Numbered from the stretch's first letter, positions 9,927-53,694 are shown. The stretch: 64,000 nucleotides of DNA from Lophium mytilinum (GCA_010093605.1 MU004185.1:2315334-2379333); one strand, 5' to 3'. The notes: generated from the sequence alone by a model not told the origin. Translations and numbers: made by a program.

Positions 9927-10444
9927 ATGGAATTCCTCGCCATCATTTCGATCTTCGCTCTGGCCCTCCGCAGCACTGCTGCTCCCGTCAACACCACCGT
10001 ACCAAGTGGGCTGTCCCCCATTCCCGCTCTTCAGAATGGCACGGAGCCGTACGTCTATTTTGCCACTCCTATCACTCCCTAAGAATTGATCTCACACTCC
10101 GCCGTGTCCAGCACGGCCCAGGACTCCTGCGCGTTCGACGTCTGGGATGACGTGAACTACAGCGGCCACCACGAAACCGTATACACAAACCTCGGCGTTT
10201 GCTATAACTTTGGCGGCAACTGAAATGACCAACTCAGCTCGCTCGCTGTCCAAAGTGGTTTCGACTGTAGCATCTACGAGTAAGATATCGAGACTTTTGT
10301 CGTTTCAAGATGATAGGGCGCTGATTCTTTGGCAGTGATATTGGATGTGGTGGGGGTTCGATCGAGTTTTGGGGCAGTATCCCTGATCTTCGTGTTTGGG
10401 GTTGGAATGAGAGGGCCAGCGCCTGGTCCTGTCGCTATGCGTAG
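9927..10444 (+). pseudogene. Small secreted beta/gamma-crystallin-like protein with in-frame TGA
   Basis: Signal peptide MEFLAIISIFALALRSTAAP; GT-AG introns 10049-10111 and 10280-10335; DDVNYSG...CYNFGGN*NDQLSSL...DLRVWGWNERASAWSC; TGA at 10221-10223 where W is expected. Confidence 0.75.
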
Positions 10445-11069
10445 CCTGGGGTTTGTCTGCCTGTGTTGCTGCGTGGCCTATTTCGGAGAACACGCAAGGA
10501 TATATGAAAAGACGACGATGCCGATAAGAAAGGCGAAGATGATGGTTCCGGGAGGGGGAGTGGACTTTCTTTCAAACGTGTAGGATGAATGTTTGGTCAC
10601 TCATTTGATTTGGTGAGAAGGAGGGTGCTCGAACTGAGATAATTGAAAATTGGTTTCACGTGGCTTCAGGACACTTGAGCTGATACATGAATGTCGAATC
10701 CGAGTTTCTTTGCCATTTAGGGCCGTTATACTCGTTTATATACCTTCCAGTTGCCAATTCCTAATACTGAGAGAAGCAGAAAAGATTCGAATGGACGGGA
10801 GGTTGGACAGACTTGTATTTACGCACGGATAGTACGGCAGAATGTAGATTTCGTAGCGCTGCTCATCATTCTGATGTCAATTGGCCGAGTTCTGTAAGAT
10901 TTCTACTCTTCAGCTTCAACGTTAGAAAGCGGAGGGGAGAGGCTTTTAATGGTATCACGATAGGGGATGGTGTTGTGATTGTACCTGCATAAGTCGACTA
11001 GAAGCGAGTGCCAGGCGGCGATCCCTGCGTTAGTGTGGGGAAAGCTCCTGTGCGTCACCAATGTTAATA

Positions 11070-13162
11070 CAGTAAAACCTTGGTATAGTGTTTTCGGGGT
11101 ATAGTAATATACTCTATAGAGTGATATATTTTAGCTAACTATATATTTTTATATAAGGATAGTAATATTACTACTTATAAAGGTATTACTAGTACCCTCT
11201 TACTAAAATTATACTAACTAGGGGGCTACACCGCTGTTTTAAGGTTATCCGGAGGCGGTTTTTCCGCGCCGGCTATACAGCTTTTTATATTCTCTATCTA
11301 AACAACGTTATATATCTATTAAAAAGCCATTAATTTCTATTATTTTTGCACCTAAATATTAATTCTATAATGCCTCGCGCCTAGAACTCTAACTAATAGC
11401 GTTGCTATAGTATTACAGACCTTAAGCGTAAGCAAATCTATAATTACTATGCTAAACACCCTAAATTATAATAAAAATAGCTTGCCCTATAGGCTATAGA
11501 TTAATTTTAACGCTATATTAGCTAGTCCTTAGTATTATTAATCCTTAGCTAAAAATATAAGGATCTAGATAGAATTAGGCTATAAAAAGAATAAGGTAGA
11601 AGAGAGAAAAAAAGGGCTGCCGAGCACCCCCTTCTAGATAAGGCCCTTTTTAAATAGCACTAGGTTCTATAAGCTTTATAGGTTTCTATTATAGGAGACC
11701 TTCTATAGATAGCCGCTTAGAGTCTATAGTAGTCTATTATAGCATTAAATTGTAAGCTAATGCCCGCCTTTTCTAATAGCTGGCTGGACGGCTAGAAGAT
11801 AAGAAATAGCGTGCAGAAAAGGAAGTAATATAGAGAGGCCGGATCTATTTAAATTAAGAATACTAAGAAAGAGATAGTAATAGTATATTAAAAAGTAGAG
11901 AATTACTAGCTATTAAATATATATAATATAGATAAATATAGCCTCTTTTAAAAGGCTATACCTAATATTACCTTAGCTACTAAGTAACTACCTAGTTTAA
12001 AGAAATAGAAAGTACGTATTACTATTGTTAATTATTTAAACGGCGATGGAACTAATAAGCTTCTACTTTAGATTATTAGAATAGCTATTAATCTATAGTG
12101 TTTTAGTTCTAATAGGGTAAATGTAAGGGGAATAGACTTTAGCTAGAAGAATAATAAGAAAGCGTGGATAACTAGAAGCCTAATACTAGAGTATCTATCC
12201 TAGTTTAATAAGAGGATAAATAGGAGAAAGGTAGTACTTCTTTTAGATGGCTTTAGCGCTTATAAGAGTACTATAGAAATAGTAAATAATAATAACACCT
12301 TAAAGAATACTAAGGTAGTATTTTTACCCCCTAATTACACGTCTATCTATTAGCCTATAGATTAGGGCATTATTCGCAATTTTAAGGCCTATTATTAGCG
12401 TTCCTGGCTACACTTTATAGTTAATTAGACTATAGAGAAAAAGAATTCTCTTAAGAAAATCCACGTATTATAGGCTATTTAATAGGCTATTACCGCATAG
12501 AACCTTATTAAGCTATTAACTATTTTAAATTACTATATTAAATTAACTATATTTAGTAACTATAAGGGCCCTTCTTAGCGTTCTAAGAACTATATAGAAC
12601 CCCCCCTATTAGATAATATATAGTAGTACCTAGATACCTTAGAAATAGTAGAAAGAATCTAGTAATATATAGATATATCTAATTTTATTTATCTAGATAA
12701 AGAGGAAATTGTTAAGCTATTAGAGAACGCTATTTCCTTTATTATTAGGCTGTATTCTAGGCAGAAAGATAATAAATTAGATGCTAAGGAGATATAGAAG
12801 GATTCTATAATTAAGATCTAGAAAGCTATTAATACTTTAGCTACTCTTAGGCTGTATAAGAAGCAGTAGAAGGATAGTAAATTAGCTCTAATTTAGGCTC
12901 TCTATTAGCACAACTAACGCCTAAGAGGACAGAAGATCTAAAACACTAAGCAATTATATATATCTAACTTTTTCCAGTAATCTTGGCAGCCTTAGGTAGC
13001 TTAGGATACATCTATTTTAGCTTCACAGGCGAGAATATAAGATATCATTAACTAATTATTATTTACTAAGCAGATTACTAATAAACCTAAATATAGTAAT
13101 ACTCTCTATATAGTAATACGAAACGGCCTAAAAAACCGTATCACTCTACCGAGGTTTTACTG
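11070..13162 (+). mobile_element. pogo/Tigger-type (CENP-B/DDE_1) DNA transposon, heavily RIP-mutated
   Basis: TIRs CAGTAAAACCTTGGTATAGTG / CACTCTACCGAGGTTTTACTG; TA at both ends; very TA-rich; relic FLPPNYTSIY*PID*GIIRNFKAYY near 12320-12395 and WLDG near 11780. Confidence 0.92.
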
Positions 13163-13271
13163 TACCTAGGAGGTAGCTCCAGCACGCCTCACTACTGTCC
13201 CCCTTCATCCATCGCTGCTGCTCTCATATTGGAATCTCTGGCAGTGACTTTGCGTCATCTTTCTTCCCAAC

Positions 13272-15846
13272 ATGGCTTCTAAGAAGCAGCCGTTATTGGT
13301 GCCCTCGTACCCGGCGGCAACAGTCGGAGCTCCCTCTCATCACTCATCTCCAACCAAGCAGCGTTGTGCAGGACGACGGTTCTTGGGAGCTGGTGCTGTC
13401 ACCCTTATGGCCCTGGGACTACTGTATGGTTTGTATGCCGCATCTTTAAGGCAGATCCAGCTGGCTGACACGAAGTAGGTGTTCCGTTCGCCAGCGAGCC
13501 CACATCAACAGCACCATGCATGTCCGCCAGCTGTGTCCACGCAGCCTCCGAGATCCTCTACAACCTTCATCCCAATTACAAGAGCCTCGACCCCTGCGAG
13601 GATACCTATGAATACATTTGTGGGGGATGGGGTGACCGACACGATCTTCGTCCCGACCAGGGAGATGCATCTTCACTCAGCGTCCTCTCCGAGGAAGGAC
13701 AACTCCTCTCTAGGCATATTCTTGACTCGCCCTATCCAGGAGATGACCCACTCGAGATATTTATTAACTCATACTCTGCGAACGGGGTAGATAAAGAGAA
13801 CTTCGAACAGTTAAAGGCTGCCTATACCGCATGCATGGACGAAGATACCATCAAGAAGGCCGGTGTCAGTCCGCTGAAGTCATTGCTGGAGGATATTGCA
13901 GGGAAGAACATCACTGAAACGGTCTTGTCGCTACTAGAAAATGGCGTCGGGGCACTGGCTTCTTTCTATACTTCAGTGAGTGCAATCGATGTTCCCCTAG
14001 TCAACGAAACTGTCAAATCTAACACGACATCAGGGCGACGATCGAGATCCTGATTCCGTTGCTATCTTCGTTACCCCTCCGAGGTCCATTGGCCTCCCCT
14101 CGAAAGAATACTACGACGATGAAGCCGTCGTAAAGGAGTACAAGGAAGTGCTTTCAAAAGTTACAAGTGCCCTCGTGGCCGCCGATGTTCTGTCGAGCGA
14201 ACAGGCAGCGTTGTTTGCTACTACGCCCGACACCGATGGCATCGTAGACTTCGAAAAGGAGCTTGCCAAAGCTTCTCCTCCCCCGGAAGATTTGGAGAGT
14301 GTCGTCAAGTACTATAACCCTCGGACTCTCGAAGAAACCTCCAAACTACTCCCGCAACTCTCAGTCAGCCGTATCATATCCGCTCTTGGCCCTTCAGACT
14401 TCACTGCGAAGCGCATCATTGTCGGGTCACCCGAGTACATGAAGTCTCTATCTGACATCCTCGACAAAACGCCAGAAGGATCATTACACGGCTACTTCAT
14501 GTGGAAAGCCGTTCAGGCGTACGCTTCCTCGGTCGAGCACGACGCACTGAAGCCTCTGAAACAATTCAGGAACAAGCTTCAAGGTAAAGACCTCGACGCC
14601 GTGCCAGACCGCTGGCGAACTTGCATTGCAGTAGTGGACGATACCCTGGGGTGGACCCTAAGCCGCTTCTTCGTCCAGAGAGCATTTTCCAAGGCTGCGA
14701 AAGAGTTTGGCGACCGCATCATCCACGACATCAAAGATCAGTTCAAGATCATACTCGGCCGTACCGAGTGGATGAGCAAGGACGTGCAGAAGCTGGGCCA
14801 GAAGAAGGTCGACAATATCGTGCAGAAGATTGGATACCCAACCGCCAGTCCTGACATCATGGACCCGGATAAGCTGAAAGAGTACTACACCGGGTTGACT
14901 ATCACCAACTCAAGCTTCTTCGAAAACAATCGCAACGCCGCCAAATTCGACATCAAGCGCGAGTGGTCCAAACTGGGAAAGCCAACAGACCGCGACGAGT
15001 GGGGCATGACCGCTTCAACCGTCAACGCATACTACAATCCTGCTGGAAACGAGATCGTGTTCCCGGCCGGTATCATGCAAGCGCCGCTGTTCTACGACCC
15101 GGAGGTGCCACAATACTTGTCGTATGGCGCATTTGGGGCTGTTAGCGGGCACGAACTGTCGCATGGTGGGCTCCCTTTACCAACTTTCCTACAAAGTTAT
15201 ACAATCAGTACTAGATCAACATACTAACACATCCACAGCCTTTGACAGCAGCGGCCGCCACTACGACGAAATCGGCAACTACTCCGACTGGTGGGACACC
15301 AAAACCGTGAAAGCCTTCGAGGAACGGGCTCAATGCTTCGTAGACCAATACGCGAACTTCACCGTCGCGGGACCGGACGGCAAGCCCCTCCACGTCAATG
15401 GCCGCTTGACATTGGGCGAGAACATTGCGGATGCAGGCGGGTTGAATGCGGCGTTCGCGGCGTGGCAGAAGCGCGATGAGGAGAAGCCAGACAAGTCTCT
15501 CCCGGGACTGCTGGACTTCACTAAAGAACAGGTTCGTGACAAGCATTCCATCCTAGAACATGCGCTGTATGAAGAGAAGGCTAATCAAGTGATGCTAGCT
15601 CTTCATGCTCAACTACGGCAACACGTGGTGCGGACTCACGAGGACGGGGACGGCGATTCAGAGGATTTATCAGGACCCGCACTCGCCCAAGTTTGCAAGA
15701 GTTGCGGTATGTACCTTCCCACACCTTATATATGCTCTGCCTGGTCTCATTTGCTAATTGATACGAAGGGCACATTGGCCAACACGCGAGCGTTCAGAGA
15801 GGCGTTCAAATGCCCCGTCAAGGAACCAACGTGTAAGCTTTGGTAA
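13272..15846 (+). CDS. M13 family zinc metallopeptidase (neprilysin/ECE-like), type II membrane anchor
   Basis: N-terminal hydrophobic anchor, DPCEDTYEYICGGW, VNAYY, HELSH (HExxH), GENIAD, C-terminal CKLW; several introns. Confidence 0.93.
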
Positions 15847-37409: not shown

Positions 37410-39556
37410 ATGCTGCACCTTTCTATACAGTATTTGGCCATCCCCGTGCTGGTGGGAGTGGTTGTACTTTGGCGACTGCTGAAAGTCGGCCAAAGACCTA
37501 AAGGCATGCCCCCTGGGCCGCCGACTATCCCAATTCTAGGCAATCTTCATCAGGTAGGCAGATCTGAGTGCGGGAAATCAGTTTGTATTGACTGTACACC
37601 AGATGCCCAAGGAAAGCCCACATCTACAATTTCAAAAATGGGCCGAAGAATATGGGTATGATGACGGAGGACGATTCTGTTGAGTCTGCCTAGATCGCTG
37701 ACCTTCTCCAGACCAGTCTATTCTCTCATGCTGGGCACGAAACCAACGATTGTTCTTTCCTCGGACGTTGCGGTCAAGGATTTACTGGACAAGAAAGGTG
37801 GCATCTATTCCGATCGTCCCGATATGTTCATTAGCCAGCGTGTGGCAAGTGGAAATCACAGATTGGTGGTGATGGTAAGTTATAAGTTCCGCAGCACCCT
37901 GTGATGCATTCCTTCCTTCTCGGCTTGTCAAGCGCAATGCACTATCGCAAGCCCGTTTCTCTACAAGATCCCTACCGCCGTAATGCTAAGCATGAGCGCA
38001 TCTTGGCGATCGTGAATGCTGAGATTAAGCCTGCTAACCCATGACAGAGATACGGTGAAACGTGGCGATTGATCCACAAATTAGTCCACAACATCCTGAA
38101 CATCAAGGTTGCCGCGAAATATATACCCTATCAGGATCTCGAGAACAAGGTTCTTCTCGCCGGCCTGCTGGACACGCCTGACGCGCTTTTCAATCATATT
38201 CGGAGGTTCAGCTACTCGCTATCGACTCAGATGATATTTGGCTTCCGATGCCCGGATTTTGCCGATCCGATGCTGAAGCGACTGTTTGAGGTTAGCGTAT
38301 CCCAGTTCATTTTAGAATTCCATGACAACTGACAGTACTCTAAAAGACCGTCGAAACATGGGGCGTGGTGTCCGCGAGCGGTGTCGCTCAGGTCGCAGAT
38401 TTGTACCCAATTGTACAGAAGCTCCCACACTTCCTCGTGCCAACTGTGAGTCAGGCAAAGAAAGTGCATGAAGTAGGGAGGGAGCTTTATACTGGCCATT
38501 GGTTGAAAGCAAAGCAAGGACTGAAGGATGGAACCGGATTGGTATGTAACTCACTCCCCGCATTCCGTGTCTTTCACGTATTTTGTATATTGATGGTGGC
38601 TTTTCCAGCCCTGCTTTTGCAATGACCTCCTTCTCGCGCAAAAAAGTGAAGAACTATCAGACGAGGCTGTTGGCTATATTGTCGGTTCCTTGCTAGAAGG
38701 TGGTTCCGACACGACTTCTTCGACACTCTATGCATTCGTCCTGGCAATGATGGTTTGGCCCGAGGTACAAAAGAAAGCCCAAGAGGAGATTGACCGAGTC
38801 GTCGGACCCGATCGCCTTCCAGAAGTCGACGACTATCCTAACTTGCCGTACATTCGCTGCTGCGTCAAGGAGACCTTACGGTGGATGCCGACGGTCATCC
38901 TTGGCGTGCCTCACAGTGTCATACAAGATGACACTTACAAAGGCTGGGTGATTCCAAAGGGTGCAACGGTTATCAACAATGTTTGGTATGTTACACCTCT
39001 CCATTTTTGTCCCACTCACAATGTCCTCCAACGGTCTTGGCCTCTTCGATCAGATATCACTACCATCGAGCCAGTCAACTTTTTCTCACGCATTCGCAGG
39101 ACAATTCACATGGACCCCAAGCGATCCCCTGAGCCCCGTCGGTTCAACCCGGATCGATTCGCGAATGACCCTACAACACTCTATCAGTCGGCAAATGGTG
39201 AACCAATGGACCGTGATAATTTTAATTTCGGAGCTGGACGTCGTCTCTGCCAAGGAATCCACATTGCCGAGAGATCGCTCTTTCTGGGTATGTCTAGGAT
39301 TCTGTGGGGATTCAACGTGTCGCAACCTCTCGGCACTGCCACTCCGGACATCGACGATCTTGTCGGTGGTATTACAGTCCATCCTAGGCCCTATAAAGTC
39401 GATATCAAGCCAAGAAGTACGAAAACGGTCAAGATTATTAGGACTGCGGTGAAGGATTGTGAGGATCTGGTCCATCCGGACTCTGGCCAGTGGAAGAAGG
39501 TACCAGATGGTATGGTCTTTGGCTCTTGGAAGCCAGACAGCAAGGTCAAGGTGTGA
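37410..39556 (+). CDS. Cytochrome P450 monooxygenase, multi-exon
   Basis: N-terminal anchor, PPGP..PILGNL, EGGSDTT I-helix, ETLR, PDRF, FGAGRRLCQG heme motif. Confidence 0.95.
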
Positions 39557-41579
39557 GCGGTGTGAGCGGTGTGAGCAGGCGACGCTCTCTTTTGTTCGCT
39601 AGGCCATCCATTCAATTTGTCTGGCTTTTACTGTGCGGGAGGACTGTGTAACGGCATTGGCTGTCACACGCGCTACACTATGCGTATAACTTTTCTGCTA
39701 GCTTCTGTCGTTGCTCTATACCTATATAGATATAGATTATCCGCCCCAGCCTGTATTTAGGTCCAGCAGCTCCTACCTCCTTTCACTTCTTCAGCAATCC
39801 TCTTGAGTCTTCATAGCGGCTGTACGTAGCTATCCGCAATCGGACCCACTAGCTGTTCATCTTGAGTTCGTGCGGGATACGTCGTCGCCGTGACATCCGC
39901 TTGCACAGAGCCTCTTACTTGTCAACTTATCCTATTTCTTTTGAACTGTTGCTGAAGACCCCAGGATGTTAACTCAGAAAGCCTTACACTCTGTCCCGTT
40001 AAAATAGTTTCTAGTACAGTATATATGAAAATACCGAAGCAGGTTAGTGAAAGTGAGCAACACACCTGAGAACGCTACCATGTGGGGCGAGCTAAGCCAC
40101 AGCGGCGCATGATCACGTGAGCAGAGGGGTCAGACATGGCGTGGAAACACTTATTGCAAGGACGAGGCTAATCATCACCGCCCCCCTTAGTGGATTATAA
40201 CAGCTCGATGGTATCGCTGTAGATCGGAAGTGTATTCTCGAGCTCCGCAGTTTACACTAAAACATCCCAAAAGGCGTGCACGGTTTGTAGCCGTCGTGGT
40301 GAACAAACCGCCGCCCTCAGGTCCGGTTTCCTAGCCGTCTTTACCCTCTCCGTATGCCTTCGCGCTCTTCCTACACCTCCACTGTTGCCACTGGTCTCAC
40401 TCATATGGTCCCACATTCTACTTTCCTCAGCCCTCCTCGCGCTAAGACTTTACGACTACATCAAACCTATTTTGTCGCCGCCAGGCCTAAGATACACTCC
40501 CAAGCGTACAGGCGCATCTCAGATAAAGCTCCAGCCTACCTCATACAACGGCGTCTCTGCTCACGTTACGAAGATGCTCTCAAAGGGGAGTGGTAAAGGC
40601 CCGATCAGCTGGAACCCCCAGGCCGTTCCCCAGGGGACAAGCGTCGATGGAGAGGACAAGATATCACCTCTTTTGCCTAGGAAAGTGGGTCAGTCGGTAG
40701 CTTCATCCCATCCAAACGGACCCCCGAACCTTCTTTTGACAAGGGAGAAATACAAGGATAGAAAGGAACTTGATCAGGGTAGCCTTCTTCAGGTTCTGGG
40801 CAAGAGATCTCGATTCGAGCAGCCGGACTTTTATCCCTCACGTACCTCTCGTTATCCTTCTGCATCTGCGCTACCGCCACGCGCAGCGTTACCTGCACGA
40901 GTAGACTACAGACGTCGGACAGACCTAGCTTCGTCGGCTCCGCTCGTAGCTTCTTCGAAATGGGCAAGTTCAGGCCATGGGGAGTTAAATAATACCGGCC
41001 TCCAGCGCAAGCGTAGTCCAGTGGTTTTCGACATGAATCCCCCAAATTCTGCACGGCTGGCTGCTATTCAGGGGAATCAACCGGGGAATTTCTCCATCAA
41101 CTGGGATGATTTCCCTCCTCATACCCAGCAACAACGCCTCCAGTATGGACAAATGCTGCAGCTGCAAGCTCAGGCTCAGGCCCAGGCGAGAATGAACCCT
41201 TCCATGTTGGGCGGTGTCGGCGGCATTAAGGCAATACAGCCCGTGACCCCTCGAGAGTCAATAGAACCGCAAGATTACGCAAAGCAGATTTTCGACTCTG
41301 TGGCACTGGCGAACGCGGGCGCTGCGGCGGCGAGGGGGCAACAGATCACGCTGACGATTGAGGGAGAGAGTAGAGCCGCGAGCAGCGATGTCGACGTGGA
41401 AGATTTAGATCACGAAGAAGTCTCATACCTTACCCATGGCGTTCGTCCTTTCCAAATGGCGCCCGCTCAAAGCGCCGGCTTGGGGAGCAGATCTAGCGAT
41501 ATTAAACAAGGCGGAGGAAAGGACCGAAGTTCCTCAAGCCTGTTCACAAATTATACTATATCTCAGGACATGACAACTG

Positions 41580-44500
41580 CGGGCGGTCTCCGGGCAGGCC
41601 CCTCAAAAAGGCCCCTTCGTCACGTGCTCGCTAGCTTATTTTATAAACAACACAAAATCTTTAAAATTAACACTGCCACGTCAGTAGCCCCCCACGTAAA
41701 AAATCACAACTCTACTAATATTCGTCGCAATTAGGATCTAACGCAATAGATTAATAGCTACGTGTCTACGCATTACAGCCAGCGCGTAGGGTTTAAATGG
41801 AAGTAAGAATGCGTTATTAATTAATAGCAGGGAACCGCGCACTTAACGCGCCCGTATAGGTGTATTTAACATAGAAATCCTTACTAATTTTATTAATTTT
41901 AACGTTAAACAGCTTCTCTCTCTTCTATCTTTATTTTCTATCTATTCTCTACGTGCGTAATGTCTAATCTATTATTAGATAATAAAGGAAGCCCTCTTTC
42001 TTTATATAAATCCTTAATTAAAAGGCCTCCTCTACTACCTTATATTATTCTATTACTATACTTAGCCTATATGCAGTCTTTCTATTAATAGCCTTCCTAT
42101 TTTATGCAGCCTTTATACCTGCGGCCTACTTAATTTACTTAATTATACGCTTATATAAACGGCCAGGCCTATAGCTATACGCCTAGCCGTAAAGAGAGGC
42201 TAATTCTAATTAAATTAACACCTCTCGCACCTACGTAGAGTATACTTTTATACCGGCCGAGTATCTAGAGCTCTAGTCCTATACCTTTTATAACTCTAGC
42301 CCCTATAAATTACACTAAAAGTAGTCTACTAGCGTATTCTACTAAGTTTCTATTACTTTTAGATTCTATTAAGTTATTACCTACTCGCCAAGAATATTAT
42401 ATATATATAACTTCTTACTACTATACTTCTACCGCCCTAGAATATTACTATATACTCTCTAATAAGCCCTAGCTTAATTTTAACCCTTTAACGCCCCCCG
42501 CGCCTCGCCCTTTATAGGTTCCAAGCCCCTAATTACACCCCTAATTAGTGCCTATTATTAAAGGGATAATTAATTAAATTCTAGCTTACTACCTCTATAA
42601 ACTAAAGAACGGTAAGGCGTATAAGACGCTAGATAAGGCTATTAAGAGGTACCTTAATTACTCCTTTTTTAAGGGGTTTTTAGGCGTATGTAATGGCGGC
42701 TTACTATAGAAAGATACTAAAAAATAGCATATTTATATTATTTATAAACACTATAGTAAAAATACTTAGAACTATTATAAGCTTACGGACTTTAAGAAGA
42801 AGGGGCCTAGTAGCAGGTAGAGAGAGGACACTATAGTATTATAATTTAACTACTTATAGGTAGTCTATATAGCCTATAAGAAGCTATATAAAAACCTAGA
42901 GGACTATATCTAGATTTCTATAGTTATATACCCTAATTACGTCCGTAAATACAGCGCGGTTCCGCACGCCGCGCACTTAATAATGCCTAATCTAATAGCC
43001 TATATTACTTACTAAGATCGCCAGCCTAAGGCTATTAAGGCCTATTACTATGCTATTAAGCTATGCCGCATAGAAGAGACTTATGCAACTACGGCGCGTT
43101 AACTAGGGCTCCGGGAATTAAAAATATCTAAAAAAAAGTACTATAATATAGCTTATAAGCTGTATACTCTTCTATATAACGCGCGTATAAAGTAGAACGC
43201 CCTCTCTATCTTAGAGCTATCTCTCTATAAAAACGGCTTTAAATATTGCTCTTGCTACTTCTATAAAGTTAACCCGCGCACTAGCTACTATATTACCCGT
43301 AATCTTAAGTAAGTAGTCTTCTAGCTACTAGGCTAGAAGAATTTTAGCAAGCGCTTTATTATAGACTACTGTTGTTAAATAGACGCTATATTTAATATAA
43401 ATAGGGTAAAGCTAAAGCTTAGCCTTATTACGGGCGTAATAAATACTAGATACTTCTTTCCGGCTATATAGTCTCTTATAAAGGAGGAGGATAAGGCCTT
43501 CTAGGCCTTTCTATTAGCCGTAGCTAATAGAAATATATAGTAAGAGAACCGCGGGCCTAAGGTAATTATAGCTAACTTTAGAAAGGGGCTAAGGGCTGCC
43601 CTTTTAGCGGGCAAGTTTATTAGTATTATTCTACAGCTTTATTAGTGGCATGCTGTAAAGGCAATAAAGAAGTATATTAATAATAGCGTTAATAAAGGTA
43701 AGAGCTATACCCAGCCTAAAAGGGAGGCAGCTAAGGCTATATTCTAGCTATATATTTAATCTAAGATGGAAGAAGAGCTTAAAAAAAATCGCTAAGCGGT
43801 TTTAGATTACCTCCTTAAAATTAATAAGCCCTGGTTCTAGAATATATACATAAAGAAAGAAGAGTACTTAATAACAGTCTATATCTAGTAAGTTTTAGAG
43901 CTTCTTTTATTATTATTTTAAATTTTTCTATTATTTTTATTATCTATATACTCCGCGCGTATTAAAGATAGGTATATTATAAGGATTTAGCGTATAGAGG
44001 CATACTTAGCACGCCTTCTATATTAATTCTATATATAGGCAGGTGCGAGCTTATATATAAGGCTCTATAGCCTACCTATTTTTGCCTATATACTCGCTAT
44101 AAACTAAAAATATATAAGAGTAGCCTATACACGGCCTGCGTATATTATATTACGCCGGCGTACCCATTATACTACCTACCTTATCTTATTTTCTTATTTA
44201 ACTTTATTAACTTATACCTTGCTAGAAAGCTTCTAAATTTTAGAGCTACCGGCTCTATACACTCTAAAGGTATAAATGGAGCCTTAAAGTACTTTATAAA
44301 CCCCCAGCTAAGCCTTAATAGATGCGTAAGAAAATTAAAAGAGTGGATTAATATTCTAGAACACTATTTAAGAGAGGAAGAATATTAGTATAAGACCGCC
44401 CTACCTAGGAAAATTACTCTTAATTATTACTAAATGTTCTTTACGTCTATTAATAGAAAGATTACTTACTTTGCGCTCCTCCGGGTATTTAATTTACTCC

Positions 44501-45844
44501 ATAAAGCTTACGCCTTGCCTTTTCTAGAGCGCACGCGGTATACTAATAAGGATTAGACTCCGTCTTATTATATATGCAATAACCTGCGTTAATTTAGCCT
44601 ACTATATATATATTACCTCCTGCGTGTAATTCTTATAGGCACGCCTATTCCCTTAGAATATATTTACCCCCGCTGGCGTATTATATTAGCCTATAAGGTT
44701 TAAAAGAATTAGTAGCTTTATTTTATAGAGGGTATAGTTCTCTATAGTAATTTAGTATTAGAATATATCCTTAAGCTTAATAAAATGCGAGACTTGGCCC
44801 TCTATATTATTAACGCCTGCGCAGGCCTTCTAGATAATAACGCGGCTAAGATTACTATATAAATTAAGGCCTTAGAGGCTAAGATTATAAAGTAATTAGA
44901 GAGAAAGGCTAAGCTCTATTAACTATAAAGTAATACAGAATTTACTATTATACTATTAAGGCTTTCTTAGCTATAATATAGAAAATAACACGGGTAGATA
45001 AATAAGCAGGCTTTAACTAGTGTAGAGGTTGCTAAGCGTTCTACTAACACTTATTTATAAAAAGAGGCTTAGACTAAGAGAAGAAGAACTCTATAGATTA
45101 ATACTAAGCTAATATATAACCTTATAAAATTTAACGCTAGTATTATAGAGAAGCTAAACAACATTAACAAGAGTAGCAGTAATAAGGATAAGGATAAGAA
45201 GGAGGAGGAGCCCGTGGAGCACGCCGAAAGGTATAAGGAAGAAGTAGGGGTGCTAGAGGAGGATATTAAAATTAATAAAAATATATTTCTTAGTAATCTA
45301 GATAATAAGAATATTACGCACGGTACGCCGCACGGAGATCTATACCTAAATTTACAGCTAATCCCGCCTCTACTAGCTTCTTAGCATGCTAAGAGTATAG
45401 GGCTACCGCTCTAGAACCCTATTTAACGTAACTATAAGCGTGTAAACGTTAGAGGCTTAGATAAGTTAATTCTTAATACTAAGCCTATTCTGGATAATAG
45501 TTCTAGTCCTTCTAGGAAGGCTAAGAGAGGTCGTCCTAAAGGGAGTAGAAAAAGAGGTAAAAAAAGAGGTGGAAAAACGGGTAGAAATTTAAAGCGCCCG
45601 GCATTATCCCAGGGACCTAATAAGGCCCTAGGAACAAAACGCGCCCGCAAAAATAATAATCTAATAGTATTTAATAAGGCTGCAATATAGTAGAAGAAAT
45701 GCGTAAAATTTAATAGAGTTATTAATTTTTTAGTATTATATATAAGGCCCGTAAGGCCTATAAGTATTATAATATTTATAAAATTTAGCTATATTAGCAT
45801 GTAATAAAGGGGCCTTTTTAAGGGGCCTGCCTAGAGACCGCCCG
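41580..45844 (+). mobile_element. Mutator-like element (MULE), RIP-mutated
   Basis: TIR CGGGCGGTCTCCGGGCAGGCCCCTCAAAAAGGCCCC mirrored at ~45809-45844; 9-bp TSD TGACAACTG / TAATAACTA; relic motifs DA.FN.NR.KL.L, PKVIIA.F.KGLRAA, LQL..WHAVKAIK, SWIM-like segment, AT-hook KRGRPKG. Confidence 0.9.
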
Positions 45845-46241
45845 TAATAACTAAAGACTAGACCCGTAAAAGATGCCGACTTATTACTATAGAAGGCCGG
45901 AGCATAGGTAGAACCTAAAATTATATTAAGTCTACTGCTTTAAGTAGTTAGTTTCTATAATATTTCTAGGTCGACACCGCAACGTATAAAGGGTGCGGCC
46001 GAGTGTATATTTACCTTATATAAGTATCTTACTAAAATCTATAATATAGCTCTATAATAACTATAACCGCATAATAAAAGTTCTTTTCTTAAGGAATATA
46101 ACAATTAGGCCTTTCTAAATATCTCTAACTTTTTAGGAACTTAATATCTTGTCGTGGTGCTAAAATACAGGTCTAAGAAGCTACTAATTTAGGGTTACTT
46201 TAATGTTCCTCGCCTCGCGTAGCTAGTAGAGATGTAAATAT

Positions 46242-46900
46242 GTGCGCCCCTAAATATTAATTAAAGAATATTACTAATTTTCGCTAATTATTGGCAATCG
46301 GGAACAAAATTAACTAATTATTTTAACATTGGCCAATGCTTAATTATTAGGCTAATTAGACTAGTTACTTAACGGGGGGGCAGCCCTCTATTTATTAAAC
46401 AGGGTTATATAAGCTAAGAATTACTAATAATTAAGGTTATACACGCCCCTGATTACTAATTAGAAGGGAATACAAGTTAATTGCCGAAATATTAAGGTTG
46501 TATAAGCCTCTAATTGCTAATTAGGAGGGAGTATAAGATTACCCTAATTTTGCAATTAGGAGGTGTTTCCCCCCCGTTCACTAATAAGGTAAAATTAGCT
46601 AATTATACCTCTAAGAAATAAGACGGCTAGTTCTTAAGATAGAAATTACCGCCTAAGGTAGCTATAAGTAGTATTAGAATATACCTCTATACTAGGTATT
46701 CTAAGTGTTTCTTAGATTTAGAAGGTAAATCTCCCCTCCCGATTAGCAATTAGGGGCTTATGCTACCCCCTGTTCGCCAATTATCCTAATTACCCCAATA
46801 ATCAAGCATTGGCCGATGTTAAAATAATTGGTCGATTTCGTTCCCAATTGCCAATAATCAGCGAAAATTGACAATAATCGTCGATTGGTGTTTGGGGGGG
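46242..46900. mobile_element. Non-autonomous TIR element (MITE-like, ~660 bp)
   Basis: ~115-bp inverted repeats (~46247-46360 vs ~46787-46900); candidate 9-bp TSD TGTAAATAT (46233-46241) / TGCAAATAT (46901-46909); no ORF. Confidence 0.8.
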
Positions 46901-47888
46901 TGCAAATATACACTCGGCGGCACCCTTTGTACGACGATCTCGAACTCAAGCGCGGTCCAGCTCTCGACTTCCCCGAGATCCTGGGTGAGGAGCACCGAAA
47001 ATCCACATGGACCGAGATCGGGAGGGGGTATAAAAATCATTCGCAGCGATATCCTCTCACAGAGGTCCTCGAAGAGTGCTTCCAGCAGCAGCACAAGCCG
47101 AGCGCCAGCACGAAAAAGGAAATTTCCAGGAGGTACAGTATACCGATTGACAAGATCAACGTATGTATCTCTAATCAGACGCTGTTAAAAAGCTGATATG
47201 TGCAGAACTGGTTCCAGAATCGCAGAGCAAAGGTGAAACAGGACTTGAGGAACCAAATGGTCAACTTCGATGGACTTTGGAAGCGGGTCTAAGTATTGTT
47301 TAGTTCATTGATCATATATAATAGACGAGGCAGGTCTCATTTCTCTGGTGCGTGGGTTTGGAGTATGCTATCATTGTCTCATGAGCTCTCTCTAGCGCGA
47401 GCTACTCTATTTGCTATCAGCTAACTCTTATTTATTTTACTGGATCACCTTCTCATAGAGCTAGGCTTGTCTGTTTTCGCGCTCGCCCATAGTGTGGTTT
47501 CTCCAACGTCAATGAAATGTAGCAAAATCTCCGCGGTGAATATAAAGCCGCTAATCACTCGGTGCTATCAGCAGAGAGGCATGTATGTCCCATTTCGACC
47601 GCGTAGTAGACCTTCTATGAATGGGTTACGGGAGGATTTTCTCTATGTGCTGCGGGGAACTGCGCGGCGGTAATATGCACGGTATCACGGCTGTACAGTA
47701 CATATCACTCGTGATATGCTAGGTCTACTATTACAGCTCGAATTCGCTGATTATGAGAACTCGCATAGTAATATAGTTGTTATGCACACGCTCCAAAGCG
47801 TTTTCTGACTCTGTATTGACACCTCTATCAATAAGTTAACTTTCAAGGAATCCGATGCGTTGCATCCGTTAATGATGAGAAATGGAGC

Positions 47889-49913
47889 TCAGATTTTGGG
47901 CTGCAATCTTTCCCAGCCGTTATTTCTTCTCATTCGATTTCCTGGACGCCTCAAACGCACTGGTGTCATAGTTGGTCGCTGGACTACTGTAGAAACTCGA
48001 TTCTCGTGGCTAGAGTTCCGGAGCATCGCAAAGGTGGTGCCATAGCCGACTACAAGAATCTTGAGAGAACTACCTGTGATCGCAACATCATCTACAATAC
48101 CCTGGAATAACTGCAGGAACATTTCCGCCCACCGCTCGTCATCTCTGTTCGCTTCAAAGAGATCTTGGGCTTCCACGACGACGAAGCACTTTGAGAGTCT
48201 GGTGAAGATTCCACGTAACAATTGTGCCCACTCTGCGTCTGTATGATCCGCCCCGATCTTTACAAAGTTTAGTTCGTGAAGATGGTTCTGCAGAAGAGTC
48301 GGTTGGTTTTGAAGTAATTGAAAGACTAGGCCTTTTAGGACCTCTGCTACTGTAGGAGGTCGGTCGTGGGAGCGCAGAGGTGCAATGTTCCAGATTACGT
48401 GGATGGACCTTTTCTGTAAAAATTTGACAACATCCGCGGCGAACTCTTTAGCTTTTGCTTCTGCGCGAGGGCCGACTTTGACCAGAAAAAGCGAAGATCC
48501 GTCGGTTGACATCCAATTTCCTAGAGCGGCTAAAAGGCTCGAAAGTTGCGTGGTTCGTGTGTTTCGAGTGTTTGACCGAGTAGCAATAGAGAGTACTTTG
48601 TAGAGTATTTCGTGTGGACAGGTCTTGGGTTTCAGGACGGACAGTATTTGAGAGAATTCGATCTCGTAAATACGAGGCTTCATGTGGGAAACATCAACGT
48701 GAATGCTCTCGGTGATAGCTTTATTACCTATAGGATTCCAGTCAGCATGACACCCTCGATAATTATGCGCGGTGCGGTGTAAGGTCATAGAGTGTATACA
48801 CCGTAATTTTATCATAAACTTACATGTAGCAACTTGCAGCACATTGATGACCGTCTCTTCAACTCTAACCTGCATTTCCTTCAGCTCTAGTTGCATAGCG
48901 TGTAGCTTTTCGTCTCTTTCCCTTGCCTCTTCGTCTCTTCTCCTTGCCTCTGTGTGTAGTATTTGCATAGTGATGTTCATGTCACGAACCTCCGCTCGGT
49001 TTCCGGAGGTGGCCACATCATCAACCGTTCTCGCACATAGTTTGATCTGTTCGACCGTGTCTTGGTATTCGAGTTTGTACGGCTTGAAGATTGCCGAGCG
49101 TATGCGTGCTGCAAGGCCACGCTTGTACCAGTTCACTGCTTTCTGCAGGAACAAGATGATGTGAGCGTATAGGCGGGATATTGCCGCTTGCATATCTTCA
49201 GTTTTGAAAAGCTCGGCGCTTAATTTGGTTTGACGTAATGCTTCGCCGATAATGGCAAGGGCCTGAGCGAATTCCTCGACTAATTCAGCGTAGACTATGA
49301 TACCCTGGGGAAGTGTTAGCGTATGGTAAAAAGGGCCTAATATAAGTGTACATATGTAATCACAGCCCCATCAATTTTCGTGTAAAGAGGCGTGGGACGG
49401 AAATACATACAACGTACCTGAAGAACGAACTTGACTGAGCCCCAGGCCAGGCATAGATATTCCGGGTGGTGCTGGGCTAGGACGTCCAAAACATTACTGT
49501 AGTATAGTATTGTTCCAGAAAATCTCTGAAGCCATTTCATAACCCCAGTCCTCTTCTCCCTTTTCGTGTCGTAACGCTGCTTTATATCCTCCATGACATC
49601 TACCACATCTTTCATGCAAGTGTTTCCATCCAGTATCTCGCTGGCCTTCCCCGGGAGCTCCGTTTCGACGAATTTCTTTGCCTCATCGTAGGCTTCCTGG
49701 GCTATATCCTTCCTAGAGGTGGCATTCTGTATTAGCGCATGCTTTCGTGAAAGGGCGGAACTGCCCGTGCTCAGATGTAGCGCAGAACAGGTACACACAG
49801 CCTTCAACAAGGGTTTTTACGTACTTCGGAACGGAACAAGGTCTGTACGAGGATCTTATGAAGCATCTATTCGTGACAGCAGCGATGCCGTCTTCTGAGG
49901 TAGGGACGGGCAT
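47889..49913 (-). CDS. DUF7708-like helical N-terminus plus degenerate NACHT-like P-loop domain, no C-terminal sensor repeats
   Basis: YSNVLDVLAQHHPEYLCLAWGSVKFVL, LYAHIILFLQKAVNWY, coiled coil, WMSTDGSSLFLV, VLKGLVFQLLQ, CFVVVE; start (49913 or 49866) uncertain. Confidence 0.75.
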
Positions 49914-50353
49914 GGCGACAGGTTTGGACGTGTTGGCCGAGAGTGCTTGGAGTATTTAGGGGCACTGCCCGGCCGGAAGGAAACACGAAACATGAGAGTT
50001 GTTCTCATAGTAAGGGCTGGGCAGTGGTGGGGAGAGTTGAGGCGAAGCTGGCAGGCTGGTTCTGCACCCACCTGGCCACCGAGGCAGACTTCAGCCTCGT
50101 GGAAAAAGAAAACATGCCAAGCAGTATCCTGGGGCACATTGCATTTGGGGGCCAAAGTCGTTGCCCAAGGCAAACCTCAGCCTTGGCCATGCTTATATCT
50201 CAGCTTTTTCTTTCACAACGACAACGGTCGAGTCTGTCGTCTTCTACAATCATTCACTGTCTCTTTTCAAAATTGTAGAAAACAAGGATTTCAGATTCAG
50301 AGATATCAGTTCAATGACGATAAAAATCCGACGATCTCAAGAAGACTCGTAGA

Positions 50354-52662
50354 ATGAATCCATCCTTGGGATCCAGCGCGAATGCATCCACGAGTCAGCC
50401 GAGGAAACGAGACCGAGAAGAATGGAGCAACGGGACGACCCCCAGTGTGGAAGAGCCTCAAGAAATACTTCGTAATGTCCAGGATGCAGATGTCAAAGGA
50501 AGAACTACAAAACGCGCCCGTAACTCTCCAAATCCAGTTCCATTTTCTCCGAAGGGTCCTCGAAAATATATAATCGCTCATCTAGTTGAATGCGATCGCG
50601 AAGGAAACCATAAAGACCATGCCTCTCGGGCAACTTATCTGGACACTCCACGACTATATGCTGGAGATAGCAAAGCCAGCGTTCTTCGTGGTAAGAAGTT
50701 CATCGCCGAAGACGGGCTCCATACCGATCTACTCGAAGAGCGCGGCATCCACTTTGTTGTCTACAGGAATTACGACTGCAGAAATTATCACGAACATGTC
50801 AAAGACGACTTCAATCCGCTTCCACTGCCGCAAATAAAACGGGAAGTTCTGGCAGGCCTGAAAGCCCACTTTTTTGATCTCCCAAAAGATGGCGACGATG
50901 CTGTGGCCCGATGGGAGAACATTGGAAGCCTTTCGATAACTCTACAGCAAACGCTTGAAACCATCAGATATCCTGGACAACTCAAGCTCGAAGCTCCTTA
51001 CACAGCCTTTTATCATGGGCGATCTCTTCTTGCAGACCACGCGTCTGGTCGCTCTGGTATCTTGGAGCCTTTACATCAGGACCACCTGCAGTCGCTTCTG
51101 GACTACGTACTGGGTTTTTGCGCGGATGACTACAAAGCTGCAGATGTGCTTTTTGCGATGGGACTAGTTGATAAGCAGCATTTCCAGAAACTCTTTCCAC
51201 CAAACGAAGTTCTTGTCGACGCTAAGGATCCGCAACCGTTAGCATACAGTACCATCGACTGCGCACAAAATCATCCCCTCGAGCTTCTTTTGACCGTTTG
51301 GAACTGGCAGTATGACGGCCTCTTCCGACAAAAGAATAGTCTACTCACAGTGACTTGGCCGTCCTATGATGGTCAGATCCCAATATCAGCATTACCGGTA
51401 TATCCGCTACGGTATGATACCACCGGATTAAAAGAGAGACTGATCGAGCGAGGTCAAATGTTTTGGGAATGTCGCAAGCGGAAGTTCGTTAGCTATGAAT
51501 CTTCAAATTCTGCGTTGGAGCTACAAACGGTAAGCGCCTCAGCTCCCCAATAAAACTGGCTACTAACCCGAAAACTGAAGAGCAACCCGAGATACATGAT
51601 AGACATCGCCACTTACAGGCAGCTGCATCTTGACGCGTTTTCTTCCCCGCAGAACGATGAGACAGAGCTCGACGCCACGGACCTTGAAGAACCGCCCGAA
51701 GGCCCTTTCCTTTTGCTTCTGCCCGCTACTATTCGTGGTTACGGATTCCATGACAAAAAGTGGAGTAAGGAACGCTCTCGACCGAAAAGTGACAAAGACT
51801 GATGAAAGCAGAGATGCTCTCCTTGGAGCATATTCGAGAAGTCGTCTGGAACAAAGAAGCTTTCGAACGCCGACTAGTGCTGAAATCCCAGAAGAAAGAG
51901 CTGATCAAGGCCCTTATATCTGTTCATATAGCCGTCAATGGCTCATATACCAGTGATATCATTGAGGGAAAGGGAAAGGGCTTGATCATCATGCTCCACG
52001 GCGGGCCCGGTACCGGGAAGACTTTGACGGCCGAAAGCGTAGCGGAGCTCGCCGAAAAGCCGCTTTACAAAGTCACCTGTGGGGATATCGGCACAGACCC
52101 CGAGGGTGTGGAGAAGTACCTCGAGTCTGTTCTCTATATCGGAACTATCTGGGGCTGTGTCGTTCTTCTGGACGAAGCCGACGTCTTTCTGGAAGAACGC
52201 GTTCCGACTGATCTTCAGCGAAATGCTCTCGTGTCCGTTTTTCTTCGCGTCCTGGAGTACTACGATGGCATTCTCATCTTGACGTCGAACCGAATCGGCA
52301 CGTTCGACGAAGCATTCAAATCGAGAGTGCAGTTGGCGATGCACTACCCATCTTTGGACCGGGATGGACGGTGGCAGATATGGAGCAACTTCCTTAAATC
52401 TATGGTACGAGAGGGAGAGAATGTCAATATCGACGAAGTCGGAGATAAACTTGATCTTTTAGCACGGTATGAGCTGAACGGTCGACAAATCAGGAATACC
52501 GTGAATACTGCGAGGCAGTTGGCACGCTATAAGAAGGAGACGCTTGCATACGCGCACTTTGAAACTGCGATAGATGTTACGAATGAGTTTGAGGAGTACA
52601 TCACTAAAGCTCGAGGACATACAGACGAGGAAAACGCGCGGATGCAAGGGCACAGGCACTGA
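50354..52662 (+). CDS. Fungal AAA+ ATPase with DUF7025-like N-terminal region, 3 exons
   Basis: LIERGQMFW, RYMID, GYGFHDKKW, DIIEGKGKGLIIMLHGGPGTGKTLTAE (Walker A), VVLLDEAD (Walker B), FDEAFKSR, LNGRQIRN. Confidence 0.93.
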
Positions 52663-52698
52663 ACATGACGATTCCTACACTTTCCAGCAACCAGTATA

Positions 52699-53694
52699 TC
52701 AATTATAACCGCTGAACTTGCACGATCGTCTCTTGTGCCGCTTCAGATGCTCGAATTCTGCAAAGGACCGTATGCAAATGTCGCATACATGAGGCCTAGG
52801 TTTGTGGAGTTTCGGGGGCGGGTATAGTTGGGTAGTGTTTTGGGAGCCTGTAGCGTTCCCTGGTTTGGATGGGACATGCTCCCATGCAAGTTGATTTGGA
52901 ACGACACTCCAGTCATACTCCTTTGCTAAATCCTTCCAAACTACATCATCTATCATTCTAGATCTTGTTGATGTATAAATCGATTGAATTAGACAAGCGT
53001 GGCTCTCGGACACAGGGATGGTCGATAAAATTATATCTGTAGTGCTCGATGCACGAGTTGCAAGGTGTTCCGGCGTCGCACTACTCTAATTTTAGTTCCT
53101 GAGGCCTGGAAAAAATGTTGCTTAGAGAACCGACAGCTACTTTCCGAATTCTACAGTTACTGCAAGCTCTCACTACGAGACTGTCAGTGATGGTTTTGCG
53201 GAGTAGTACCGAAACCACTTACAGCTACGCATCGAGAAAGCACCCATTCGCTGGGCAGAGATCCACCCGGGCGATAGGAACGGAACGAAAGGAGAATCCT
53301 CTCGCACACGCTTTCGTCCTTTCGTCAACTCCAACTTCCGAGGCTTAATAGCCATCCACTCGTCCGTGCTGTCCCGAGATGGTAAAGCCGAATCGGTAGC
53401 CACGCTAGTTACGCAGGTGCGCCGGTTCTCAAGAGCAGATAGTCGACATTTATAGCGGACGTGATCTCCGGTCGTCATGTCCTGGGAGATCGTGTACTTC
53501 GTAAATAAACTAGAAGGCCTTCGACCATGCTCTTCAACCATAACCTTGTGATTTCCCACTGAAAGTCGCCTGCTTCTAAGGCTTGCCGTTTTTATTGGTC
53601 CAGTGGTCCCCTCGTTGTTTTTCTCTACCTCCTTTCGCACGTCCTTAGCATCGTCGTCGTCACCGGGGCCTTTGAGCAGAAGTGAGATGTCCAT
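52699..53694 (-). CDS. Small Zn(II)2Cys6 transcription-factor-like gene followed by an out-of-frame C2H2-type finger (possible pseudogene)
   Basis: Spliced RACSNCRIRKVA|CDAGTPCNSCIEHYRYNFIDHPC (introns ~53222-53173 and 53134-53081), stop at 52960-52958; next frame KPRPHVCDICIRSFAEFEHLKRHKRRSC. Confidence 0.7.

Follow-up and report, generated by a model that had tools for sequence, protein, structure and literature searches.

The present analysis concerns a 64,000-nucleotide stretch of the genome of the wood-dwelling fungus Lophium mytilinum (GCA_010093605.1 MU004185.1:2315334-2379333; henceforth the window, with positions counted from its first letter), in which two genes on opposite strands, here termed gene A (+) and gene B (-), encode a common peptide module. 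The module copy in gene A (copy A) has a core of 15 codons at 41534-41578 (+), which translates to SSLFTNYTISQDMTT; the core of the copy in gene B (copy B), likewise of 15 codons, lies at 53514-53470 (-) and translates to SSLFTKYTISQDMTT. The two cores agree in 14 of 15 residues and differ in 12 of 15 codons. At the level of bases 13 of 45 differ, twelve of these at third codon positions, one at a first position and none at a second; the sole first-position difference is that of CTG/TTA, which is synonymous, and the sole residue change, N/K, results from AAT/AAG. Assuming an even spread over codon positions, the probability of at least 12 of 13 differences falling at third positions is 1.7e-5. 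Nei-Gojobori counting gives 12 synonymous differences over about 9.7 sites, i.e. saturation, and one non-synonymous difference over about 35.3 sites (~3%). The original prediction for this locus had reported the same coordinates, strands, residue and codon counts and third-position bias, all of which were confirmed by retranslation and base count. Its further proposals, that the peptide is old and under purifying selection and that no recent DNA duplication is involved, hold as well, because the synonymous sites are saturated and the core contains a single amino-acid change.

The similarity between the two loci is significant (blastn: 106 nt, 65% identity, E 5.6e-10; tblastx: 34 codons, 65% identity, E 2.3e-10) and is therefore not a chance match. 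It is also sharply delimited. Searched by tblastn against the whole window, the copy B piece recovered copy A (E 1.3e-5, over the part ahead of an insertion described below) besides itself, and all other matches were at E 0.59 or worse. The 335 residues that precede the module in gene A have no counterpart in gene B, and the best local alignment between the sequences following the module scores 22, against 25 +/- 4.5 for shuffled sequences, with 392 of 500 shuffles reaching 22. Two candidate similarities in this downstream region, a decayed homeodomain in gene B (W-F-x-x-x-x-A-K, from read-through of the first intron) and an L-E-L-x-x-G match, did not rise above shuffles and were rejected. The description of the loci in the original prediction as two inverted paralogs is thus too strong, since only the module is common to both, with unlike flanks on either side of its ~34 codons; genes A and B are two unrelated genes with a common piece of ~100 bp. 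The module is protein-coding and has been kept by purifying selection while its surroundings diverged past recognition, and it very probably represents a real coding module under selection, of some 32-34 residues. Its invariant core can be written as L-F-x-x-Y-T-I-S-Q-D-M-T-T, and is followed by a looser second half (G/E, D/E, x, x, R, x, K/R, C, R, L).

In gene A the module is split by an insertion. The first coding part of this gene (40574..41579, +) comprises 335 codons from the ATG of the public model P0001 to the insertion site, and it lies in an open reading frame (ORF; 40223-41734) of more than 450 codons that has the module at its end; the module core of copy A (41534..41578, +, 15 codons) stops exactly at the insertion site. 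The proteins encoded in the window are identical to database records that bear the name of Lophium mytilinum. Over 95% of its length as query, this first part is 100% identical to P0001, and we detected no relative of these 335 residues except their own record (1 of 6977 candidates at E <= 0.001) and no Pfam family at E <= 0.1. The inserted element 1 (41580..45844) is a multi-copy, 4265-bp sequence of 35% G+C with 49-nt inverted ends that are 86% complementary. It is degraded in the manner of repeat-induced point mutation (RIP), with a TpA/ApT index of 1.71 and a (CpA+TpG)/(ApC+GpT) index of 0.41, and shows a read depth of ~380-2100 in DNA run X1 and 290-1080 in DNA run X2, two runs that may be the source of the window, as against ~160 for the flanking DNA; the differences seen there are mostly C>T and G>A. 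It is bordered by a 9-bp target-site duplication, the left copy of which (41571..41579) reads TGACAACTG and the right copy (45845..45853) TAATAACTA; the right copy departs from the left by RIP-type transitions only (2 G>A and 1 C>T). Mutator-like elements typically carry long terminal inverted repeats together with a target-site duplication of 9-11 bp, and the ends and duplication of element 1 are consistent with its being such an element. The coding capacity of the element is destroyed: it has no ORF longer than 118 codons, the longest being of low complexity, and no transposase is readable in it, no profile search having been run on it. An insertion does split copy A, as had been proposed, and its inverted ends and 9-bp duplication fit the Mutator-like assignment. 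In run X3, which derives from a different organism, a 4434-letter contig agrees with the left inverted end (41580-41629) of element 1 at all but 2 of 50 bases, and the element 1 family may accordingly be present in a second species; low-depth pieces identical to the window also occur in that run and are apparently carry-over.

Beyond element 1 the module continues immediately behind the right inverted end and the 9-bp duplication, in sequence that bears stop codons and RIP-type damage. The similarity to copy B resumes here, as had been noted earlier, and the reading frame is kept when the element and one copy of the duplication are taken out. The corresponding remnant of gene A (45854..45982, +) is 129 bp long, with the second module half at ~45854-45900, and is RIP-damaged (36% G+C, TpA/ApT 2.0, second RIP index 0.33), containing five in-frame stops (TAG, TAA, TAG, TAA, TAG). 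It is followed by a second inserted element (45983..46933), a 951-bp RIP-like sequence resembling a miniature inverted-repeat transposable element, with 30-nt inverted ends that are 93% complementary and inner inverted arms of 147 nt; a target duplication was not recognised at its borders. The last part of the gene (46934..47292, +) consists of an exon extending to 47160, a 45-nt intron (47161-47205) and a final exon (47206-47292) that includes the stop, and these exons are in frame with the earlier parts once both elements are removed exactly. They encode a homeodomain, as residues 385-430 of P0001 match the Pfam Homeodomain PF00046 (E 1.6e-12, 47.5 bits, gathering cut-off 22.9), and the module lies outside it, ~60 codons ahead. 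We interpret gene A as having been killed recently, its parts standing in the order N-terminal region, module and homeodomain. Copy A is dead: a Mutator-like element inserted within the module, a second element inserted 129 bp further on, and RIP reached the piece between. As joining 40574-41528, 46862-47160 and 47206-47292 reproduces P0001 exactly, the public model treats 5333 nt (41529-46861) as an intron; within this "intron" lie the stops, the two elements and the core of the module, and 24 residues of P0001 come from the terminal part of element 2. The annotated protein is therefore unlikely to be produced in this form.

Copy B (53422..53523, -) is intact, comprising 34 codons within a 185-codon ORF. 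It spans residues 59-92 of the first exon of gene B (53223..53694, -; 157 codons and one base), which is identical to residues 1-157 of the public model P0002. The first intron is canonical (GTAAGT ... CTGAC ... TAG), and the models diverge thereafter. In P0002, 53172-53161 is spliced to 53105, with a stop immediately after. In an alternative model that we predict from the sequence, the downstream exons are 53172-53135 and 53080-52961 (-), with the stop at 52960-52958, a GTCGGT donor and a TAG acceptor, and the spliced product contains the pattern C-x2-C-x6-C-x5-C-x2-C-x12-C. The fungal Zn2Cys6 zinc cluster has the pattern C-x2-C-x6-C-x5-12-C-x2-C-x6-8-C; the cysteine layout predicted for gene B reads like it, but its last spacing, x12, is too long. 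The third exon alone has no Pfam match. Both halves of the pattern are also matched by one contig from the run of another organism, in which 22 letters separate them as against 76 in the window; this provides a weak hint that the two halves belong together. These exons would encode a zinc-cluster-like finger, which P0002 may miss. Further downstream on the same strand there is a C2HC/C2H2-like finger (52719..52805, -) within an ORF at 52699-53085, which matches the Pfam families zf-C2H2_4 (E 0.023) and zf-C2H2 (E 0.075), in both cases below the cut-offs. The public records of both genes need revision, because P0001 hides the insertions, five stops and the module, and P0002 may lack a zinc-cluster exon.

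Among the annotated proteins that the searches covered, the module has two further carriers. A phmmer search of 1.84 billion protein representatives with exon 1 of gene B returned its own record only, besides a 2886-residue repeat protein (E 4.4e-4) that we judged spurious. A word-indexed profile search with the module of A and B recovered the record of B and P0004 (E 7.5e-8), a protein of 576 residues recorded under the name of Mytilinidion resinicola, which contains a C2H2 pair at residues 140-195 and the module at 528-560; its residues 528-574 are identical to B at 26 of 47 positions (pairwise E 1e-12). The zinc-finger part of P0004 matches C2H2 proteins named DvrA/Bcr1/Usv1 (~E 1e-30). Among the matches listed in a search with P0004 were P0006 and 118 other C2H2 proteins (P0007-P0124), and a regular expression found the module in none of these 118. 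P0006 is an unnamed ORF of 359 residues, with the module at residues 302-333 (62.5% identity to B, E 1.4e-8 in a window search). Homologs beyond the two copies in the window are therefore P0004 and P0006, and together with A and B they make four carriers; the module is known so far only from Lophium mytilinum and close relatives. As the word-indexed search missed P0006, and as annotated proteins only were covered, the family is under-sampled, and so are its range and its fused domains. A metagenome scan with a 3-row profile yielded 148 pattern matches, of which two loci (L001 and L002) were confirmed; both are bacterial-looking ORFs with a 12/14 match, and we treated them as chance because the match stops after the forced pattern. 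At L001 (2256-2628) the ORF changes frame after ~2396, probably through an assembly frameshift.

The carriers differ in their DNA-binding domains. Alongside the module there is a homeodomain in A, a homeodomain tail in P0006, a C2H2 pair in P0004 and the putative zinc-cluster-like exon in B, and these are the fused domains that the original prediction had proposed to list. The first 18 residues of P0006 match the end of the homeodomain of A and the tail beyond it (12 of 17 identical), with the module placed ~290 residues after the tail. Aligned over 344 positions, P0006 and residues 229-568 of P0004 show 45% identity, the module being nearly identical, so that the two proteins have a common linker and module, with zinc fingers in P0004 where P0006 has the homeodomain. 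The difference between P0004 residues 1-228 and P0006 residues 1-62 reflects either a true swap of DNA-binding domains or a gene model fusing two neighbours. Depending on the carrier the module stands before or after the DNA-binding domain, and its boundaries are discrete and the same in all four contexts.

As the region is rich in elements and RIP, it might be supposed that the module is debris of a transposable-element protein in host ORFs, its synonymous pattern stemming from selection on the element before insertion. The usual omission of repeats from gene catalogues would also explain why so few carriers are annotated. We consider this very unlikely. Both module sites are single-copy by depth (~160-205 in X1 and 105-168 in X2), unlike element 1, which implies that the module is not part of a repeat. 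The same homology boundaries recur in four contexts, and the module lies in frame in long ORFs, with an open stretch of at least 450 codons ahead of it in A and an ORF of 185 codons around it in B. Moreover, it is the best-kept part of the 344-position alignment of P0004 and P0006, which indicates selection in place.

The module did not correspond to any known family, as the original prediction had anticipated. Exon 1 of gene B matched no family in Pfam-A (2025 copy) at E <= 0.1; at E <= 10 there was likewise no family for the 83-residue piece of B, the last 66 residues of P0004 or P0002, and overall the four module pieces had no family match up to that threshold, WRKY, FLYWCH and FAR1 included. 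A profile search of PDB sequences gave nothing below E 0.6, the best match (E 0.61, to a stretch of cytochrome bc1 core protein 2) being attributable to chance. A full-text literature search with the core hexapeptide string found no match, and no title among those listed for the species name concerned the locus. A search of a protein atlas by features, using residues 55-135 of B, placed three FLYWCH clusters at the top with scores of 0.87, 0.87 and 0.85, which by the tool's own calibration are leads only, being below 0.9; the same search with residues 505-576 of P0004 gave no usable match and the FLYWCH lead was not repeated.

This lead raises the alternative that the module is an accessory nucleic-acid-binding hairpin, e.g. 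the degenerate first two strands of a WRKY-GCM1/FLYWCH finger recruited beside other domains. According to PMC1702500, the WRKY-GCM1 superfamily includes the WRKY, FLYWCH and Mutator-like transposase DNA-binding domains, and the K-Y ... R-Y-K-C pattern of the module is reminiscent of the WRKY core described there: an aromatic-x-K-Y on the first strand of a predicted two-strand hairpin is followed on the second by R-Y-K-C, with the aromatic two positions before the cysteine. The DNA-binding nature of every carrier would also fit. Nevertheless, the module differs in lacking the metal-ligand set and a profile match, and in its predicted fold a third and fourth strand. In that superfamily zinc is chelated by two cysteines and a His-x-His or His-x-Cys dyad. 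Only one cysteine is conserved in the four copies; in B a second follows 10 residues on, with no histidine or cysteine over the next 60 residues, and P0004 has a single one. A His-x-His or His-x-Cys dyad after the module is absent in B, P0004 and P0006. Against the four-stranded WRKY-GCM1 core, in which the signature strand comes first, AlphaFold2 gives the module two strands only, at a pLDDT (predicted local distance difference test) of ~60. The missing ligands and profile match, taken with the sub-threshold and unrepeated atlas scores, make a degenerate finger improbable, and nucleic-acid contact by the hairpin is less likely than docking of a partner.

The AlphaFold2 model of the 157-residue exon-1 protein of B has a hairpin as its only secondary structure, with strands at 67-72 and 80-85 and block pLDDT values of 63 and 62 at the strands; these are the highest in the model (mean 52), which is of low confidence and rests on a 4-row alignment. 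The module is therefore weakly indicated to be a beta-hairpin in a disordered setting, and from the alternation of residues one face of the hairpin would present Y, I, Y, C and L, and the other K, R, K and R. A prediction of the complex of two copies of B residues 52-106 gave a score of 0.00, with no verdict either way. Strictly conserved peptides that occur independently of position and domain in disordered regions of regulators usually act as docking sites. Because the module has these properties, we favour docking over the alternatives: it sits in low-complexity regions, with no predicted structure, of regulators with different DNA-binding domains, its hairpin, hydrophobic on one face and basic on the other, would fold upon a partner, and it would thereby dock these regulators onto one common co-regulator, modifying enzyme or transport factor. 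That the module is a docking site for a shared partner is, on this analysis, a tentative possibility. Short co-regulator docking motifs of transcription factors, such as eh1/FxIxxIL, WRPW and the Hox hexapeptide, are 4-8 residues long. The module resembles them as a strictly conserved short peptide in fast-evolving, unstructured parts of regulators of several DNA-binding classes and in variable position, but differs in its length of ~32 residues, the lack of any sequence resemblance and its known restriction to one fungal lineage. Among filamentous-fungal homeobox proteins it finds a partial parallel, in that A has a bona fide homeodomain (PF00046) and P0006 a matching tail; however, the module lies outside the homeodomain, and in B and P0004 it is present without one. 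It is new as a sequence family, but of a familiar kind, namely a short conserved module in transcription regulators.

The invariant serine, threonine and glutamine of the core, with S-Q followed by an acidic residue in what looks like a disordered setting, could alternatively suggest a regulatory switch, i.e. a phosphorylation-dependent degron or localisation signal around I-S-Q-D and T-T. An S-Q with an acidic residue resembles the sites of kinases related to phosphoinositide 3-kinase. Yet a kinase site needs far fewer residues than are conserved here, and the basic second strand is conserved too; we regard a switch of this kind as quite unlikely.

Taken as a whole, the best explanation is a lineage-restricted module under selection, which occurs beside different DNA-binding domains and would dock a shared partner; it leads the alternatives, though it falls short of being probable. 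Several points weigh against it. The partner and its binding are postulated; the fold is of low confidence, drawn from the same 4-row alignment; there are only four carriers, one of which (P0004) may fuse two genes and another (P0006) is a bare ORF starting inside the homeodomain; the exon structure of gene B differs between models; classical linear motifs tend to be shorter than the ~32 residues of the module; and its true range and fused domains are under-sampled by the searches. A further reading, that the module is a portable part which moved between homeodomain, C2H2 and zinc-cluster regulators, serving a common partner or mutual assembly, is somewhat unlikely; on this reading P0004 and P0006 would represent an outright exchange of the DNA-binding domain ahead of one linker and module. 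If that were true, it would be a young and traceable gain of a common network input by the shuffling of a ~100-bp coding piece. If the module is indeed a docking or assembly element, it would single out a lineage-specific group of regulators that have one input in common, and would offer a small, well-bounded case of module shuffling among DNA-binding proteins. Given the narrow known range of four carriers and a putative function, its general importance is modest.

Between genes A and B lies a gene (47889-49816, -) that resembles those of NOD-like receptors (NLRs), with a DUF7708 match (E 8.7e-29) and, at its start, an NPHP3_N/NACHT-type NTPase (E 9.3e-5, 23.1 bits, just under the 24.8-bit cut-off). 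This neighbour raises the idea of an amyloid-type signalling motif of the HET-s/NWD2 type, such as fungal NLRs carry at the N-terminus and have in common with adjacent effector genes. The likeness is that a short peptide, with two predicted strands, is the sole similarity of neighbouring and otherwise unrelated genes close to an NLR-like gene. However, the tblastn search with the module found A and B only in the whole window, and not the NLR-like gene; the carriers are DNA-binding proteins and not known effector types; and the composition differs, the module lacking the Gly/Asn-rich character of the described amyloid motifs. We regard this explanation as highly implausible. Converging on gene B is an AAA+ ATPase gene (50324-52662, +), with matches to DUF7025 (E 1.1e-10), AAA (2.6e-15) and the fungal AAA lid (1.7e-11). 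Directly upstream of gene A, 38045-39556 (+) holds ORFs that look like cytochrome P450 by eye, no profile search having been run. A second AT-rich block in the window, at 10001-14000 (40% G+C, TpA/ApT 1.33, second RIP index 0.86), is probably another RIP-affected repeat island.

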